Source of the DNA: Escherichia coli
GTDB lineage: Bacteria; Pseudomonadota; Gammaproteobacteria; Enterobacterales; Enterobacteriaceae
Assembly (NCBI RefSeq): GCF_044324875.1
Contig: NZ_CP172185.1
DNA: 64,000 nt
Strand: one strand, 5' to 3'
A program made the position numbers and the translations under genes. The notes below the pieces were generated by a model. It was given only the letters and a program-made list of their open reading frames with translations, was not told the origin of the DNA and did no database searches. Shown here in pieces: positions 35,494 through 41,621 of the stretch; position 1 is the stretch's first letter, and every line of letters starts with the position of its first letter.

Positions 35494-36005
35494 TTGATGG
35501 TAACTCTGACCATTAACCGTAAACCGCAGGGTATTTTCAGTAAATCACCGGCAACGCCGCTGCAGGATAAAACGGACACAGCATACAAAATGAAGGCCGG
35601 TGACCAGATACCACAGTTGAACGATAAACAGAAACCTGCTGATAAAACACCGTGGCGACATGACAAAACGCCAGAGCAAAAACCGTAAGCGCATTATTCG
35701 TCTTGTGGAACTCTGGCCTGAGTCATTCAACCGGGAAAAAAACAAAACCACTTAAAGTGGGGATACCTGACGACCTGATACAGGATATCGCCATCCGAGA
35801 ACTGGCGTTTGGCGCTGGTACATTACATGCAGCAGTGGCGTCTTATGTGCAGTCTCCGTGCTATTACCGTGCGTTAATAGCAGGTGGCGCCCGTTACAAC
35901 CTGAACGGTCAGCCGTGCGGGGAAGTGACACCACAGGAACAGAAAGAGGCAGAGACCCGTTTAATGATGCTGAATGACCGACGAAAAGACAGAAAACCTC
36001 GTTGA
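35494..36005 (+). pseudogene. ProQ/FinO-domain RNA-chaperone gene, disrupted by frameshifts
   Basis: Three frames carry consecutive FinO-like pieces. The first is MMVTLTINRKPQG.. (compare FinO PVLTLKRKTEG). The second is ..KRKRIIRLVELWPESFNREKNKTT*. The third is ..KPLKVGIPDDLIQDIA..YVQSPCYYRALIAGGARYNLNGQPCGEVTPQE (compare ProQ RPLKIGIFQDL..RVDLDGNPCGEL). The second frame switch coincides with an A7 run at 35736-35742. Confidence 0.7.
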
Positions 36006-36022: not shown

Positions 36023-36619
36023 TCACTGAGCTGTAATCAATGTACAGCGCTGTACCGGGCGATGGGTAATACCGGTCACAACCGGTAACCCCAGAGACAA
36101 TGCAACTGTTTTTAACGCAATATACTGGCCGGATGTATCACCCCGGGCAGCCTGAAAACACCTTTCCACCCGGCATTGTCCGTCAGCACTTATCACCCGC
36201 CATGTCTGTTGCAATAAATCCACCCGTTGCGAACATTCTTCATCAACCGTGGCACTGACCCGTGGATGGCAAATGCTCGTCTGGCTGAGCAGCAACAGGC
36301 ATCGCATTGTTGCTCCTCCATGTTGTTCCCGCAACCAGCGTAATACCACCGGTGGTGCTGGACTGGCCGTGTGATTACGTTCAGTAATACGCTCGTGCAC
36401 CTGTCGGTAAAAGGAAGTACAGAATGCATGAATCTGTTGTCCGTTGATGTTTCCTTCTGCCGAATGGAGCGTGAAGTGAAATGCCAACAGATTTGGCCAG
36501 TGGTCCACCGCCTGCTGAACAAAACGCCGGATTTCCCCCGGCGCTGAAAGTAAGGCTTCGGTTATTTGCACTATTTTATCCCCGTTGAATTTTGTTAAGC
36601 CGGTGCAGACCAGACACAC
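36023..36619 (-). CDS. YagK/YfjJ-family (inovirus Gp2-like) protein, paralogue 3
   Basis: 198-aa maximal ORF. It has no ATG start, so GTG at 36619 or GTG at 36571 (after GGGGA) is likely. It resembles the other two paralogues in the ..LLAFHFTLH.. block. Confidence 0.6.
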   Translation of the reverse strand: MCLVCTGLTKFNGDKIVQITEALLSAPGEIRRFVQQAVDHWPNLLAFHFTLHSAEGNINGQQIHAFCTSFYRQVHERITERNHTASPAPPVVLRWLREQHGGATMRCLLLLSQTSICHPRVSATVDEECSQRVDLLQQTWRVISADGQCRVERCFQAARGDTSGQYIALKTVALSLGLPVVTGITHRPVQRCTLITAQ

Positions 36620-36848
36620 GGAAAGCGCACATCGACACCGGCACGGTACGATACAAACACCAGTGACTGGCGGGACGAAGGGAATGACGAATCAGTCAGG
36701 AAATGATGACAAACAGTTGGCTGGCCAGAGGGTGCCAGCAGAAAGATGAGCGGGAGTTGTCAGCGCCAGCACCAGGGACAGGGCTGATTTCCACAATACC
36801 AGCGCCGGCATTTCGCACATTGCCAGCGTACTGGCATTACAACACGTT

Positions 36849-37085
36849 TCATGCTGCTGCTCCTCGTGATTCCTCAATTCGCTGCTGCATCCACTGCTCC
36901 ACTTCACTTTTGTACCAGCGGCTGCTGCGCCCCAGTTTGATGGGTTTAGGGAAATGGCCTTCACTGATCAGCTTGTAAAACCATTTGTCGGTCATACCAG
37001 TGAAGCTGGTGATGTAGTTCATGTCGATCAGGGGATCGTCGGCACGCAGCAATACGCTGTCGTGACCTGTCATTGAGGTCAACAT
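36849..37085 (-). CDS. alpA: AlpA-family phage/island regulatory protein (MerR-like HTH)
   Basis: 78 aa. ..LIDMNYITSFTGMTDKWFYKLISEGHFPKPIKLGRSSRWYKSEVEQWM.. has the typical AlpA-family layout. The start may be the internal ATG at 37073. Confidence 0.8.
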   Translation of the reverse strand: MLTSMTGHDSVLLRADDPLIDMNYITSFTGMTDKWFYKLISEGHFPKPIKLGRSSRWYKSEVEQWMQQRIEESRGAAA

Positions 37086-37153
37086 GGTCAGAATGTCCTC
37101 TGTGAGATTTATGAATGTTGGGCAAATGCGGGTGAATCTGCTGAGCTGAGCTT

Positions 37154-37756
37154 TCAGAGCTGGCCTGCTACGGGATACCAGGGATTACCGGCGAGGTAAC
37201 GGGCTTCCGGATCGCGCACACCACGACGATCGCGGGCGAAATCACTGAACGCCCATATCAGCTCTTTGAGTCTCTCTTCGCAGTCCGGTGAACAACTGTC
37301 CAGCACCACATCCCGGGTTATCTGTTTCTGGTACGGTGCTGCTTCACCCGGTGACGCGAAGCCCAGTACGTTGCTCCAGGCATCCAGAATCAACCGGTCC
37401 AGCTCAGGGCCGTCGAAATATTCCTGTCTGACGCACAGCACCACGTGGTATTCCGGTTTTTCAGGATGACGGGTCAGGAGCCAGCAGAGGTCGCGTCCGG
37501 GGGTTGCATTCATCAGCGCACTGACGGTTTCGATAAAGGCCATACCGAACCAGGTTTTTCTGTCGCTGAAGATGTTGCCATGTTCCCCCGGCAGACGAAG
37601 CAGGATCCGCCGTATCCTGGAGCCGGACTGCTCGCGCAACACACGGTTGAGAACGCCGATGATTTTGTTCTGATAAGATGGCCAGAAGGGCGCCATGCTA
37701 TAGTCGAAATAAGGGATAGCATTCATAAGATATGTTCCGTTATACGCAGCCCACAA
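37154..37756 (-). CDS. YagK/YfjJ-family (inovirus Gp2-like) protein, paralogue 2
   Basis: 200-aa ORF from a non-ATG start. ATG at 37726 (MNAIPYFDY..) is the more likely start. It contains ..IRRILLRLPGEHG.. and ..PEYHVVLCVRQEYF... Confidence 0.65.
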   Translation of the reverse strand: MWAAYNGTYLMNAIPYFDYSMAPFWPSYQNKIIGVLNRVLREQSGSRIRRILLRLPGEHGNIFSDRKTWFGMAFIETVSALMNATPGRDLCWLLTRHPEKPEYHVVLCVRQEYFDGPELDRLILDAWSNVLGFASPGEAAPYQKQITRDVVLDSCSPDCEERLKELIWAFSDFARDRRGVRDPEARYLAGNPWYPVAGQL

Positions 37757-38082
37757 CGCGTCCTGCCCGTGGATGCGCTGACGTGTTATGGCTTGCGTAT
37801 GGGGTTGATGGAATAAGTGAAAAACCGCGGCAGAACGGGAAGATCAGGTAACCGACAAGGGACAGAACACCGGATGCAGGTTCAGAATGAATGATCTCCG
37901 TTGACTTCGGTTCACATCATTAAGCAGGACAGTAAGGTTTTACCGACGGAGTGTTTCCAGGAGCGAAAGCAGAGAAAAATACCGTTGCATGACTTCAGGA
38001 CGACTTTTTCAGAAAACGAGCTAAGGGCGTCAGCCAACGTCCTGTAGCATAAGCTCAGGCACCGGATGTCGTTTTACAGGGC

Positions 38083-38814
38083 TCACCTGCCATCCAGCAG
38101 ACGCCCCGGCCCACGACTGCAACCATAATTACGTTGCCCGGAACCGTCATGCTGCTTCGTCTCATATTTCACGAGATAACTGGCTCTGTTCCGGGCTTTC
38201 TGCAGCGCTTCCACATCACCACGCTTGATCCAGAGAACAGCGGCTTCACCCGGCTTTTTTTCTGAAGCCTTCCTGGTATCAGAACATCCACCCGACAAAG
38301 GCGTGTCATCGGAAGAAGGGCGAGCATCAGACGATGCTGGTTTACGGGAAGGCGTCCACCTGGAAAAATGGACCAGGCCATCGCCTTGCCAGGCCTCAAG
38401 ATGCAGGGCGCTGCACCATGCCTCCAGGATCATCGTCGCCAGCGAAGATGGTTCGCTGAAATCCCCTGGCGAGCACCAGGTATCTTTGTTGAGCAGCAAT
38501 ATCACGTGATAATGTTTCCTGCCTTTTTCCTTGCCAAACTCCCGACACCAGAAATAACGCAGAGTGGTTGCACGCACACGCTTGTTGGCACGTCGTTTTT
38601 TCCGCTGGTAAGCCTGGATTTTGGCTTTCAGGGATTCGAAAAAACGAGAAATCACCGCTGAATCCGGATCGGGATCCATGATGGTGACAGGCATATACTC
38701 AGGGAAACGTAAATCCACCCGGATTAACGAGACGGCACGGTGCTGCGACAGGGCACTGTCGAGAAGGCTGTCAAAACGGGATAACCAGTAAGCATTGTGT
38801 ATTGGTTGATTCAT
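38083..38814 (-). CDS. YagK/YfjJ-family (inovirus Gp2-like) protein, paralogue 1; it retains an H-Y-H (HUH-type) motif
   Basis: 243 aa with GGAG 8 nt upstream. It has ..VSLIRVDLRFPE.., GRKHYHVILLLNKD (H101-Y-H103, DNA 38506-38514) and the C-terminal RASYLVKYETKQ. Confidence 0.8.
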   Translation of the reverse strand: MNQPIHNAYWLSRFDSLLDSALSQHRAVSLIRVDLRFPEYMPVTIMDPDPDSAVISRFFESLKAKIQAYQRKKRRANKRVRATTLRYFWCREFGKEKGRKHYHVILLLNKDTWCSPGDFSEPSSLATMILEAWCSALHLEAWQGDGLVHFSRWTPSRKPASSDARPSSDDTPLSGGCSDTRKASEKKPGEAAVLWIKRGDVEALQKARNRASYLVKYETKQHDGSGQRNYGCSRGPGRLLDGR

Positions 38815-40397
38815 GATGAGAGATCTCCGTTGATTTGGATTGACTTCACATCATTAATCACCGCGGTAAAACTTTACGGCATCATGTCATTAAGCAATGC
38901 TACAACTCTCTGATTAAGAGTGATTGAAACGGAACAAACCATCCCGGAACGAAAAGATAATCCTGCACACAGCAGCAAAACACGCAACAACAGCATGAAT
39001 GGATTTAAAAACGACATGGACGACGAGAAAAGCCTGAAGGGAAAAGGATCCACAGAACATTCGAACAAAACACCAGAAACGCAACCAGAACGCTTCCTGG
39101 CAATGCAAATCAACAACAACGCCAAAACCTACAGCTTAATCACACAACTCAATCACGAATGCGAATGACACGTTTAAAACCTGTTTACAGATAACGCCGT
39201 AACACGATCATCCCCATCACCATCAGAATCGATTTTCTCATCCCGAAAATGTTACGTTTCACTACGCACCATAAAAACGATTAACCATCGATAACGTAAA
39301 TCTCATCTGAATCAAAAAACCAAAACCAATCATCACACTTTCGCAATGCAAGAAGAAAAACCACATCATGACGAAAACAATGACCTTACATGAAAAAGCA
39401 AAACGTCAGGAATCGTTAATGCCTCAATCTGATTGTTATCAAAACATCCAGAAAGTCGTTTAACAGAATCGTCGTAAGCACATCGAAAAGAACGTCAGAT
39501 CACCTCAGGAAAGTTCGGGTTGATTTAGCGTAAAGATACTTTTCTCAGCTTAACGTCGAAACACAAACCAAAAACCACAAACAACCAAAGCTCAGGAAAG
39601 GTTAAACGTCACATCAGTAAAATCGAATAGCAGATTGATTGCTTAAACAGGAAAGATTGTTTTACAGCAGCATTAAACTGATTTAGTTAACGTAAAATCA
39701 GAACTGACAGGTTTACTAACTTGGATGTGTATCAGTTCAAAAATGTGTACAGCAATGCGTAATGAAACACATTTAAAGGAGATTAATGGGAAAAGTGTGT
39801 AAATGCGTAAACATGCACTAATGAATCACTGAAGGAATACATACAAAACGACTTAATGAAAACATAAAAGGACCTAATGGAAAAGGTGTATATAATACCA
39901 TATCCGACATTCTCAACATCTTAAGACATCCATGCAGACTGAATGTTGGTTTCAGTTTTTCACGGTAAGCATGAATCTTTTCTGTTCAAAAGCAGAGCAG
40001 ATTTACTCTGGAATTATTTTTCTTACTCCGTATTCTGTACAGCAAAAACTTGTGCTAACTTTACAGCAAACCATCATAATCAGCGTCTGTAGTCCCATCG
40101 CTTTACCCCATGAAAGTGAATCCATATGATGTGAGAGAGATAAGTCATCGTATCCGGTAAACACTGCTTACTATAACATAAGATCATTCAGTCAGTTTTA
40201 TCTCTGAACTGACGATTATGGCATGCTCATTTATATGGCTCACAGAGGAGTGTTATTATCCGTAAGCTTTAATCATCAAATCACATGACCATACCAAACT
40301 GGCGCTATATCAGCTCATTTGACGCTCATTCCCTTTAGATTTCTTTATGTGTTTTTTGTCGATAATTAAAATGTAATATAAATTTAATATTTTCACA
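38815..40397. other. 1.58-kb ORF-poor tract with strong strand composition skew and recurring short words
   Basis: The only track ORFs are 38874-39168 (three overlapping, low-complexity) and a 65-aa one at 39932. The + strand of about 38,900-39,720 is conspicuously A/C-rich. See the findings for word positions. Confidence 0.6.
39760..39883 (+). repeat. five spaced TAATG(A/G)(A/G)A words
   Basis: TAATG starts at 39760, 39784, 39819, 39854 and 39875, giving spacings of 24, 35, 35 and 21 nt. The contexts are cgTAATGAAAC, atTAATGGGAA, acTAATGAATC, ctTAATGAAAA and ccTAATGGAAA. Confidence 0.5.
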
Positions 40398-41621
40398 TCA
40401 TAAACACCATTTAAAACCATCATCCTGAACATCATACAACAATATATTTTTACTAAAGCATGAATTGTATATTTCTATTAATTCAGGAAAATTATCAGGA
40501 TTCACCTTTAAATTCAACTGAATGTTACACTTAATTTCACTCAGCAGTTCTTCATGCGTGGATTTTATTATCCCTTTATCATAATCTATAAATACACACA
40601 TGTTTTTCATGAATTCAAACCCTTTTCCTGTATACAGTTTGATGAATGCCACAAGAGCAAACATTTCAAGATGCAGCCATAATGCCACGTGAGTTTTTCG
40701 CAAAGTATAAAAAATTGAATTCGCCACTTTTTTACTTATTGCTCTTTTGTACTGTGAGTGCGCCAGATTCAGTAGTGGCAATTCTCTCTCGATAAATGAA
40801 AGTGAAAAAGGCGGGTAAATTGATGTCGGAAATATTTCAGGTCTTATGATATTTTCGATTTCCACCATAAATCTATCCATAGAACGAAAATCATTTTCTT
40901 TTTTTATTCTGGTATAGAGACCGCCTTTATTCCTTACTGCGACTTTTTTTCGTGCTATCCCCCCCAACATTTCCTCTAATTGTTTATTTATCTTCGTATC
41001 ATTAAATACAACCATTCTTCTTATCATCCTGGGAAGGATGATAATATCAGAGCTTGAATCACTTGAACGGCAATTATTATTGATCCATGCAACTTCAAGT
41101 TGAAGTATCGGAACATTAAATTCTCTGGGGTTAATAACTCTCTGATATTGTTTTTTGTATGCGTTTTCATTAAGATATTCTCTGCTGTAGAGAAACTTAT
41201 AGCAATATAATCTGACAATATCCTTTATGTAAGATTTAAATGAGTCACCTGTAACAGATATATTTTTTCTTCTCAGTAACTCCTGTGTATTGAGCCATTC
41301 CCGTGACCGGAGTACTCCATTATGAAGACTTTTTCTTACTTGCTTTGAATTGCGCAATTGATGTAATATTTTTGCGTCCTCAACAATTCTCTTTCCCGTT
41401 TGATTTCTTGCAGCATCTATTACTCTGTCAAATATCTCCCGGTCCAGACTTTTGTCATATTTACTGATTATACGACAAATATTCCTGACCCGACGGTTCT
41501 CTTTATTTCGTTTCCATAACTGATAATGATCATCACATAACCTCAGGGCATTTGCCTCATCAAATTCTGAAACAGGATTGCTGCATTTTTTATTCCGACA
41601 GATACCTTTGTTTTTAGCCAT
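40398..41621 (-). CDS. hypothetical 407-aa protein, AT-rich orphan with an N-terminal Cys/His cluster
   Basis: This is the only long ORF here, and its Lys/Asn/Ile-rich composition matches the very AT-rich DNA. The N-terminus is MAKNKGICRNKKCSNPVSEFDEANALRLCDDHYQLWKRNKENRR (C-x4-C-x16-C-x2-H). I recognise no family. Confidence 0.7.
   Translation of the reverse strand: MAKNKGICRNKKCSNPVSEFDEANALRLCDDHYQLWKRNKENRRVRNICRIISKYDKSLDREIFDRVIDAARNQTGKRIVEDAKILHQLRNSKQVRKSLHNGVLRSREWLNTQELLRRKNISVTGDSFKSYIKDIVRLYCYKFLYSREYLNENAYKKQYQRVINPREFNVPILQLEVAWINNNCRSSDSSSDIIILPRMIRRMVVFNDTKINKQLEEMLGGIARKKVAVRNKGGLYTRIKKENDFRSMDRFMVEIENIIRPEIFPTSIYPPFSLSFIERELPLLNLAHSQYKRAISKKVANSIFYTLRKTHVALWLHLEMFALVAFIKLYTGKGFEFMKNMCVFIDYDKGIIKSTHEELLSEIKCNIQLNLKVNPDNFPELIEIYNSCFSKNILLYDVQDDGFKWCL

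Follow-up and report, generated by a model that had tools for sequence, protein, structure and literature searches.

The closest described relatives of the genes considered here are yagK and yfjJ of Escherichia coli K-12 (PF11726), located in the cryptic prophages CP4-6 and CP4-57; our literature searches returned no biochemical or genetic evidence of nicking, replication or transfer for any YagK/YfjJ protein. Also comparable are the rolling-circle initiators of ssDNA phages (PF23343), such as microvirus VP4 and phiX174 gpA, the latter of which uses two tyrosines, and the solved HUH domains of parvovirus NS1, AAV Rep and SIRV1 ORF119. Defence genes abound in the cargo of CP4-type islands, and the presence of AlpA is characteristic of phage satellites. 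Gp2-like genes and alpA are also reported core genes of Pseudomonas tmRNA islands, and the islands with this core carry defence systems (PMC12595487).

We have analysed a 64,000-nucleotide window of an E. coli genome (contig NZ_CP172185.1) in which three minus-strand genes, here called copies 1, 2 and 3, lie around alpA. A sequence-only reading of this window had recognized the three same-strand ORFs and alpA, and had proposed that one catalytic protein and two non-catalytic derivatives arose there by serial duplication with subfunctionalization or decay. The four genes are confirmed at the coordinates given below and the three ORFs are homologous: they are true paralogues, although very distant ones. 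Copies 2 and 3 evolve under purifying selection and are not decaying.

Three distant paralogues around alpA

Copy 1 (38083..38814, minus strand) encodes a 243-aa YagK/YfjJ ('inovirus Gp2 family') protein, copy 2 (37154..37726, minus) a 190-aa catalytically degenerate YagK/YfjJ paralogue that is annotated everywhere as 'hypothetical', and copy 3 (36023..36571, minus) a 182-aa paralogue which, like all of its close homologues, has a precomputed assignment to UCP030791 (PF27752), a family without known function. Both degenerate copies had been thought to lack an ATG start; this holds for copy 3, which begins with a GTG at 36571 behind a GGGGA Shine–Dalgarno sequence, but copy 2 starts at an ATG at 37726 (MNAIPYFDY...) that is used by the RefSeq annotation and kept in all homologues.

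At the protein level, copies 2 and 3 share only about 20% identity with copy 1, and direct BLASTP comparison between copies gives weak matches (E = 0.003 and 0.023); the paralogy is visible only when profiles are compared with profiles and sequences of other bacteria serve as intermediates. With such intermediates, hhalign relates copy 1 to copy 2 with 98.1% probability (E = 7e-14) and to copy 3 with 95.9% probability (E = 6e-9). Against PF11726, whose curated gathering threshold is 25.8 bits, copy 1 is a full-length member at 128.3 bits, copy 2 falls below threshold (11.5 bits, E = 0.3) and copy 3 has no direct match. Copy 2 is linked by a bridging protein (P0316) that matches both the copy 2 profile (E = 1.3e-18) and PF11726 (41.8 bits), and copy 3-like intermediates reach 20–23 bits (E = 7e-5 to 7e-4). 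RefSeq names reflect the link between UCP030791 and PF11726 only intermittently, as 'YagK/YfjJ domain-containing', 'inovirus-type Gp2' or 'hypothetical'.

Between copies 2 and 3 lies alpA (36849..37085, minus), encoding a 78-aa helix–turn–helix regulator of the AlpA family (PF05930, E = 2e-10). Its stop codon is overlapped (ATGA) by the ATG of a 30-aa zinc-ribbon ORF (36760..36852, minus) of the form CxxC...CxxC. This ORF has no significant match in Pfam and is probably what remains of the pair of DUF7828/Zn_ribbon_11 genes found at the corresponding place in other Enterobacterales; one fusion protein (P0217) carries PF11682 and PF27752 on a single chain. The complete set of a Gp2-like gene, alpA, two zinc-ribbon genes and a copy 3-like gene is found at six loci, in Hafnia, Tenebrionibacter, Siccibacter, Apirhabdus, Superficieibacter and Enterobacter; five of these have full-length copy 3-like ORFs, and in the other (L016) the ORF is split. 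Of 80 loci in other species, most have alpA and a Gp2-like gene side by side in the same orientation, and tandem pairs of active and inactive copies are present at three loci (L022, L026 and L036). Other Enterobacterales also have the trio together with alpA, and so does one metagenomic contig, on which alpA is accompanied by copy 2-like and copy 3-like genes and by an active-type Rep-like gene with HAH and YLAK motifs. In E. coli itself, 2199 of 5426 complete genomes (about 40%) carry the module, often in several copies.

The surroundings are those of a CP4-type island, with GTPase, DUF932, antirestriction, RadC-like and toxin–antitoxin genes in addition to alpA, and copy 1 lies outside any filamentous-phage genome. 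A tblastn search of 50,697 phage records found a relative encoded on only one, unverified, contig of 4.4 kb. Of the genes that characterize P4-like satellites and CP4-57-type elements (an integrase, alpA and a P4 alpha-type primase–helicase, which is YfjI/DUF3987 in K-12), alpA is present, but neither the window nor the related E. coli loci have a DUF3987 or primase–helicase gene next to it, whereas yfjJ of K-12 follows yfjI (DUF3987). The island is interrupted by IS elements, and the region studied yielded no integrase.

Catalytic motifs and predicted folds

The HUH motif and the SYLVKYETK sequence noted previously in copy 1 are present at residues 98–111 (GRKHYHVILLLNKD) and 212–220 respectively. 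H101-Y-H103 is followed by VILLL, a pattern invariant across divergent clades, and a YxxK motif lies C-terminal to it (Y213-LVK216...K220); both motifs are invariant in the family. Y213 is the sole family-conserved tyrosine of the C-terminal motif; Y217 varies. Also present are D34 and E92, and R32, D34, W89, E92, H101, H103, Y213, K216 and K220 are invariant among K-12 YagK and YfjJ, the 188-aa subtype found in E. coli and a relative from a metagenome. Copy 1 shares with the K-12 proteins the RxD, WxxE, HUH and YxxKxxxK signature, as well as island type and alpA association; it differs from them in a disordered insert of about 41 aa (approximately residues 152–192), which distant relatives do not have, and in its partners, as K-12 has no counterpart of copy 2 or copy 3.

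Copy 1 also matches PF23343 (REP_ORF2-G2P) at 41.3 bits, above the curated cut-off of 27.8, and is weakly matched by PHROG replication-initiation families. It is predicted to adopt an alpha/beta fold in which a central antiparallel sheet carries the HUH motif, and the best matches to this predicted fold are solved HUH nucleases; its named structural neighbours in BFVD are microvirus replication initiators. Sequence-profile searches gave no match to any PDB chain, solved HUH proteins included, and identity to the parvovirus NS1, AAV Rep and SIRV1 ORF119 domains is only 9–15%. Copy 1 lacks a helicase domain, and while the HUH motif with its hydrophobic residues and the YxxK motif are common to copy 1 and the VP4 and phiX174 gpA initiators, copy 1 is much smaller, has one conserved tyrosine and is not in a phage genome. 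Sequence signature and predicted fold together support the assignment of copy 1 as an HUH nuclease of the Rep/relaxase type that is apparently active. Frameshifted 214-aa versions without Y213 are found in many E. coli strains, and the catalytic copy is therefore dispensable in the chromosome.

In copy 2 only the second histidine of the HUH motif is kept (E92-Y-H94; C-Y-H or F-Y-H in relatives), L42 stands in the place of D34, and the tyrosine position is occupied by WAFSDFARD, which contains no tyrosine and is invariant in the copy 2 clade. The degenerate motif ascribed to copy 3 by the sequence-only reading, LAFHFTLHS, aligns with strand beta-1 of copy 1 (LIRVDLRFP); the true equivalent is ATMRCLLLLS (T88-M-R90), for which relatives have E-Y-K, E-C-K or E-R-K. 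Copy 3 also has H32 for D34 and S159 for Y213, but keeps E82, the counterpart of E92. PF23343 matches neither copy. In an AlphaFold2 model of copy 3, the secondary-structure elements follow one another in the same order as in copy 1. Together with the hhalign paralogy, these losses at the HUH and tyrosine positions support the view that both degenerate copies derive from the fold family to which copy 1 belongs and are non-catalytic. Their dN/dS values are 0.07–0.26 (copy 2) and 0.30–0.51 (copy 3), and in thousands of genomes both are intact ORFs whose start is conserved. Occasional frameshifted variants exist.

A leader shared by copies 1 and 2

A leader motif, TTAATGATGTGAA...TCAACGGAGATC, had been noted upstream of two of the copies; it occurs exactly twice, on the minus strand at 38822–38857 and 37893–37923, with none expected in 100 shuffles. 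The likeness extends over about 65 nt (37881–37943 versus 38810–38877) at about 77% identity, or about 100 nt if an indel is allowed. The copy 1 leader (38815..38897, minus) includes a short palindrome, GTAAAgtTTTAC, a 15-mer, TGATTAATGATGTGA (38860–38846), and TCAACGGAGATC with the Shine–Dalgarno sequence (38833–38822); the copy 2 leader (37881..37965, minus) has the palindrome CGGTAAAACCTTAC, the 15-mer TGCTTAATGATGTGA (37926–37912) and TCAACGGAGATC (37904–37893). A further 15-mer in the copy 1 leader (38896–38882) is poorly conserved, even in comparison with the closest relative, and an inverted copy spans the copy 1 ATG (38807–38821), such that three direct and one inverted 15-mers lie around the two starts, compared with 0.38 expected. 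Pairing of the 15-mer with the start-codon region in a hairpin is weak and not significant (RNA fold z-score −1.6), and a simple sigma-70 scan of the leader found no promoter.

The end of the copy 2 leader is separated from the copy 2 ATG by 166 nt of non-coding spacer in which stop codon positions vary between islands. Of the 5426 complete genomes of E. coli, 1876 have this leader, in every case within DNA that carries no annotation, and its core is invariant across islands although synonymous divergence in the adjacent gene reaches 0.48. It is absent outside E. coli-type islands and also upstream of K-12 yagK and yfjJ, and its copies are 77–100% identical. The leader always precedes copy 2, but precedes copy 1 only in the minority subtype present here, because most E. 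coli islands have as copy 1 a different subtype, 188 aa long, whose leader is of another kind. The leader is therefore a cis-element that is either shared or recently copied, and not a relic of ancient duplication. The proposal that serial duplication generated it is not supported: the trio predates E. coli and its proteins are about 20% identical, whereas the leader is E. coli-specific and 77–100% identical.

Possible roles of the module

We consider it an even chance that these genes form a control and DNA-processing module of CP4-type islands, in which copy 1 is an HUH nickase acting with non-cutting copies 2 and 3 and with AlpA. Copy 1, copy 2, alpA, the zinc-ribbon relic and copy 3 probably constitute one transcription unit, and the shared 65–100-nt leader may be a cis-acting element that places copy 1 and the copy 2–alpA–copy 3 segment under common control. 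As a single-tyrosine HUH nuclease, copy 1 would most likely nick island DNA at a specific site in a metal-dependent reaction and become joined to the 5' end through Y213, and the nick could lead to rolling-circle replication or single-strand transfer of the island once excised, excision itself being triggered by AlpA via the integrase. Counting against a nickase, no nick site or origin was identified. Copies 2 and 3, as ancient paralogues that appear to have kept the fold but lost metal-binding and tyrosine residues while being selectively maintained, are most likely non-cutting DNA-binding partners or regulators acting in site recognition, inhibition or titration. The origin-binding domains of papillomavirus E1 and SV40 large T antigen, which are catalytically dead HUH folds, offer an analogy for such putative DNA binding, although theirs are helicase domains in eukaryotic viruses, and copies 2 and 3 are free-standing proteins of 180–190 aa beside an active-type paralogue. 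More tentatively, the three proteins could form a DNA-processing machine under AlpA control, a small HUH nickase with two dead paralogues for site recognition or regulation, driving island replication or single-strand transfer; this we regard as possible but doubtful.

Somewhat less probable still is that copy 1 is a mobilization relaxase, or an enzyme resembling single-strand transposases, in place of a replication initiator, so that a nick at an island origin of transfer would allow a co-resident conjugative plasmid or phage to move the island, with copies 2 and 3 as accessory factors of the relaxosome type; against this, replication initiators (PF23343, the PHROG families, microvirus VP4 and parvovirus NS1) are the strongest neighbours of copy 1 in sequence and structure, and neither an origin of transfer nor a partner coupling protein was found. 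The tight linkage to alpA, the excess of 15-mers, which could serve as operators, and the stable maintenance of catalytically dead members would also suit a family acting mainly as sequence-specific DNA-binding regulators of genes on the island, for example of alpA and the integrase, in which copy 1 keeps its HUH and tyrosine residues for binding. We think this improbable, since invariance of D34, E92, H101, H103, Y213 and K216 across clades only about 20% identical is hard to explain without catalysis, and the third 15-mer is not conserved.

On the decay side of the sequence-only proposal, a recent serial duplication of copy 1 would have left copies 2 and 3 as remnants now in decay, with the leader as a leftover; this is already largely refuted and retains very little probability. 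Loss of catalytic residues in both, the change of ATG to CTG in the leader copy ahead of copy 2 and the frameshifted variants would fit such a history, but dN/dS is well below 1, reading frames and starts are conserved, orthologues of both copies occur with the same synteny in other genera, the proteins are far more divergent than the leader, and in most islands the copy 1 that accompanies copy 2 and its leader is of another subtype. It is equally hard to credit that the module serves in phage interference or defence, for instance by nicking or hijacking the genome of a helper or invading phage instead of replicating its own island; the defence cargo of CP4-type islands and the association of AlpA with satellites favour this, as do the defence systems of Pseudomonas islands with the same core genes (PMC12595487), but PADLOC has no match for any of the three proteins, and the module sits among backbone genes and not in the variable cargo.

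CP4-type islands carry virulence, defence and toxin–antitoxin cargo, and the backbone of the island described here appears to include one intact HUH nuclease gene and two conserved pseudo-enzyme paralogues, one of them known only as 'hypothetical'. Their grouping with the excision regulator AlpA provides a testable handle on island replication and movement, and the trio would offer a clear-cut case, from bacteria, of HUH enzymes recycled into non-catalytic partners. If the three proteins do act as one machine, they would represent a previously unrecognized driver for the commonest family of genomic islands in E. coli and other enterobacteria.

Gene order and paralogy

On the minus strand at 36023-38897, the leader is followed by copy 1, a spacer, copy 2, alpA, a 30-aa ORF and copy 3, and this region has 95-99% identity to chromosomal islands in many E. 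coli strains. There, copy 1 (38083-38814, minus strand, 243 aa) is annotated as an 'inovirus Gp2 family protein', copy 2 as a 'hypothetical protein' and alpA (37085-36849, minus strand) as a 'helix-turn-helix transcriptional regulator', while copy 3 is variously a 'hypothetical', 'YagK/YfjJ domain-containing' or 'UCP030791 family' protein. Copy 2 had been thought to lack an ATG start, but a conserved ATG at 37726 is the start in RefSeq and in each of the 61 homologous clusters, giving a 190-aa product that ends at 37154 (minus strand); copy 3 (182 aa) runs from a GTG at 36571 to 36023 on the same strand. The 30-aa ORF, MKRVVMPVRWQCAKCRRWYCGNQPCPWCWR (36852-36760, minus strand), has two pairs of CxxC and begins with an ATG that overlaps the stop codon of alpA (ATGA). 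It has no significant Pfam match, and looks like either a relic of, or a mini zinc ribbon retained from, the two ~140-aa DUF7828 and Zn_ribbon_11 genes that occupy this slot in several other Enterobacterales, in which the order is Gp2-like gene, alpA, the two zinc-ribbon genes and a copy 3-like gene. A 100-aa ProQ/FinO-family ORF fragment (35703-36005, plus strand) is convergent with copy 3; its orthologue is annotated as frameshifted in related genomes, and this RNA chaperone gene, whose position is conserved, may belong to the island backbone. The neighbouring GTPase, DUF932, antirestriction, RadC-like and toxin-antitoxin genes are those of the CP4-type backbone. Searches for tRNA genes and Rfam families found none in the window.

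The family assignment of copy 1 is already present in Pfam and RefSeq, and direct evidence that the other two copies are its paralogues is barely there. BLASTP aligns copy 1 with copy 2 at E = 0.003 and with copy 3 at E = 0.023, each over ~50 residues; Pfam PF11726 scores 128 bits with copy 1, 11.5 bits with copy 2 and does not match copy 3, and neither copy 2 nor copy 3 gave anything usable when scanned directly against Pfam and NCBIfam. Using E. coli-only alignments, hhalign relates copy 1 to copy 2 with 77% probability and to copy 3 with 10%. The link between copies 1 and 3 was settled by adding intermediates from other genera. When the copy 1 family was run against a single genome from each species, 80 loci were recovered, six of which (in Hafnia, Tenebrionibacter, Siccibacter, Apirhabdus, Superficieibacter and Enterobacter) have an ORF 3' of alpA that matches both the copy 1 and copy 3 profiles, full-length in five and split in the sixth (L016). 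These ORFs match PF11726 at E = 7e-5 to 7e-4, and with them included the copy 1-copy 3 comparison rises to 95.9% probability (E = 6e-9, 142 columns). Two distant relatives of copy 2, both full-length, came from an exhaustive profile search covering 1.84 billion representatives, and adding them gave 98.1% probability (E = 6.9e-14) for copies 1 and 2, and 79% for copies 2 and 3; one of the two, P0316, has E = 1.3e-18 against the copy 2 profile and, with 41.8 bits, exceeds the PF11726 cut-off. AlphaFold2 models of copies 1 and 3 (pLDDT 77 and 67) have an identical order of helices and strands. The copy 3 family corresponds to the recent Pfam entry PF27752 (UCP030791), of unknown function, and copy 2 is 'hypothetical' everywhere.

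Catalytic residues and maintenance of the inactive copies

The peptide and leader motifs noted from the sequence alone were all found where they had been placed. In an alignment of copy 1 with K-12 YagK and YfjJ, the 188-aa E. coli subtype, a metagenomic relative and proteins of Brenneria and Providencia, the residues R32, D34, W89, E92, H101, H103, Y213, K216, K220, G226, G231 and C232 are invariant, defining a signature of an RxD strand, WxxE, HUH and YxxKxxxK. Y217 is not conserved, and the family is therefore of the one-tyrosine HUH type. Aligned to copy 1, copy 2 has L42 at the position of D34, E92-Y93-H94 at H-Y-H and an invariant WAFSDFARD segment that lacks the tyrosine; the tyrosine is also missing from its distant relatives, in which the motif reads C-Y-H or F-Y-H. 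Copy 3 has H32 at D34, T88-M-R90 at H-Y-H and S159 at Y213, and in other genera its relatives lack the tyrosine and show E-Y-K, E-C-K or E-R-K; the peptide LAFHFTLHS, previously taken for its degenerate HUH motif, aligns instead with strand beta-1 of copy 1 (LIRVDLRFP).

Copy 1 passes PF23343 (REP_ORF2-G2P) with 41 bits, and weak matches to four PHROG 'replication initiation' families fall around its HUH region. Its few named matches in BFVD are microvirus replication initiators with low TM-scores, and the family profile has no match among solved structures at E <= 10. The copy 3 model gives generic RRM/palm matches, with SIRV1 ORF119 ranked second, which are compatible with an HUH fold but not diagnostic of one. 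Copy 1 also carries a disordered Ser/Pro/Asp-rich insert of ~41 aa (residues about 152-192; 38239-38361, minus strand; pLDDT below 50) that is missing from its 189-200-aa relatives, and many E. coli alleles are frameshifted within it, yielding 214-aa proteins without the catalytic tyrosine. The 'inovirus Gp2' name is misleading here, as the locus is not set in a filamentous phage and essentially lacks homologues among phages: tblastn against 50,697 phage records gave one match, to an unverified contig without annotation.

Decay of the degenerate copies, one of the two fates that the sequence-only reading had suggested, is essentially excluded as a sole explanation: the gene set is old, and between divergent E. 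coli islands copies 2 and 3 have pairwise dN/dS values of 0.07-0.26 and 0.30-0.51, respectively (0.02-0.25 for alpA). Most of the 80 loci have alpA within 5 kb of the Gp2-like gene on the same strand, usually about 100-150 bp downstream. Active-type and inactive-type copies occur as tandem pairs in three loci (L022, L026 and L036), and on one metagenomic contig alpA is accompanied by an active-type HAH/YLAK Rep-like gene, a gene resembling copy 2 and a PF27752 gene resembling copy 3. Of 5426 complete E. coli genomes, 2199 contain the copy 2 region, with a median of two occurrences each. The slot 5' of copy 2 is filled in most E. coli islands by the 188-aa 'HAH' subtype, 19% identical to copy 1 of the window; comparison of the window with three other E. 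coli islands (L086-L088) finds either this type or the 243-aa HYH type (YagK/YfjJ-like) upstream of copy 2, each with its own leader. The alternation of two unrelated-looking, apparently active HUH clades at one slot suggests cassette-like replacement, in which the catalytic gene may be swapped while its inactive partners and alpA stay.

The leader and the upstream DNA

The leader lies at 38815-38897 before copy 1 and at 37881-37965 before copy 2 (minus strand), and its bipartite pattern occurs exactly twice in 64 kb, where none is expected; the two elements are similar over about 65 nt ungapped, or about 100 nt with one 49-nt indel. The leader is built from a short CGGTAAA-N-TTTACCG-like palindrome; a 15-mer, TGMTTAATGAYRTGA, of which there are three direct copies and one inverted copy across the copy 1 ATG (0.38 expected); and TCAACGGAGATC, which supplies the copy 1 Shine-Dalgarno sequence. 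The leader is always present with copy 2 and is found in 1876 complete E. coli genomes, always in unannotated DNA; the 188-aa HAH subtype has an unrelated leader, and the element precedes neither K-12 yagK and yfjJ nor the Gp2-like genes of 79 loci in other genera. Its core does not vary between islands, even where the adjacent gene has diverged by up to 0.48 at synonymous sites. Since the paralogues are only ~20% identical and predate E. coli, the leader cannot have survived as a neutral remnant of their duplication, which leaves two options, a constrained cis-element or a recent copy placed before the window's copy 1 subtype. Conservation of the third direct 15-mer does not extend to the closest relative, leader RNA folding is not significant (z = -1.6, +0.7 and +0.2), leaving a hairpin that would occlude the copy 1 start codon without statistical support, and a sigma-70 scan of the leader predicts no promoter. 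We can therefore only infer its function: it may place copy 1 under common regulation with the copy 2-alpA-copy 3 genes, or may serve as a protein-binding or nick site.

The 356-nt spacer between copies 1 and 2 (minus strand), which holds the second leader, was considered as the relic of a deleted gene, but it has no homology to copy 1 outside the leader and its reading frames are stopped at differing places among islands; a possible upstream ORF is interrupted by a 1-nt indel in L086. When the 350 nt 5' of Gp2-like genes were compared among loci of other genera (L009-L085), about a quarter were found to contain a TGGTATAGT(ATTA) element, resembling an extended -10, together with a TAATATCAGAGT motif; K-12 yagK and yfjJ have similar GGTAxTATATA sequences. 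This element is an upstream signal distinct from, and more widespread than, the E. coli leader.

Upstream of copy 1 lies a 1.6 kb AT-rich tract (38815-40397, GC 0.34-0.43) with no convincing ORF and extreme strand asymmetry on the plus strand (AT skew reaching +0.46 and GC skew falling to -0.43). Iteron-like CTTTCCTGA-type motifs are weakly repeated within it, at 39505, 39592 and 39647, and it could be a regulatory or origin region; an AT-rich gap also precedes Gp2-like genes in other genera, with a median of about 450 nt. Between the tract and a YeeP/YfjP-like GTPase gene is a 407-aa ORF (40398-41621, minus strand, GC about 0.33), a RefSeq hypothetical with no Pfam, NCBIfam, PADLOC or PDB sequence match.

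A candidate DNA-processing module

The best-supported reading is that these genes constitute a DNA-processing and control module. AlpA is an established trigger of excision for CP4-57, and here too it would trigger excision of the island; the copy 1 HUH enzyme would then nick the island's DNA and so initiate either rolling-circle replication or transfer as a single strand. The origin-binding domains of E1 and large T antigen are inactivated HUH folds, and by analogy copies 2 and 3 would be partners that bind DNA or regulate. The leading alternative is that copy 1 acts as a relaxase or in a transposase-like role rather than as a Rep protein. A purely regulatory role or a defence role is less likely, both fitting less well with the invariance of the catalytic residues and the absence of PADLOC matches.

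We found no paper that characterizes YagK/YfjJ proteins or describes the trio; the nearest report lists Gp2-like genes and alpA in the core gene set of Pseudomonas islands that a jumbo phage moves (PMC12595487). What appears to be novel in the DNA-processing module is the association, within an AlpA module, of a probable HUH initiator or relaxase with two conserved paralogues that would be pseudo-enzymes.
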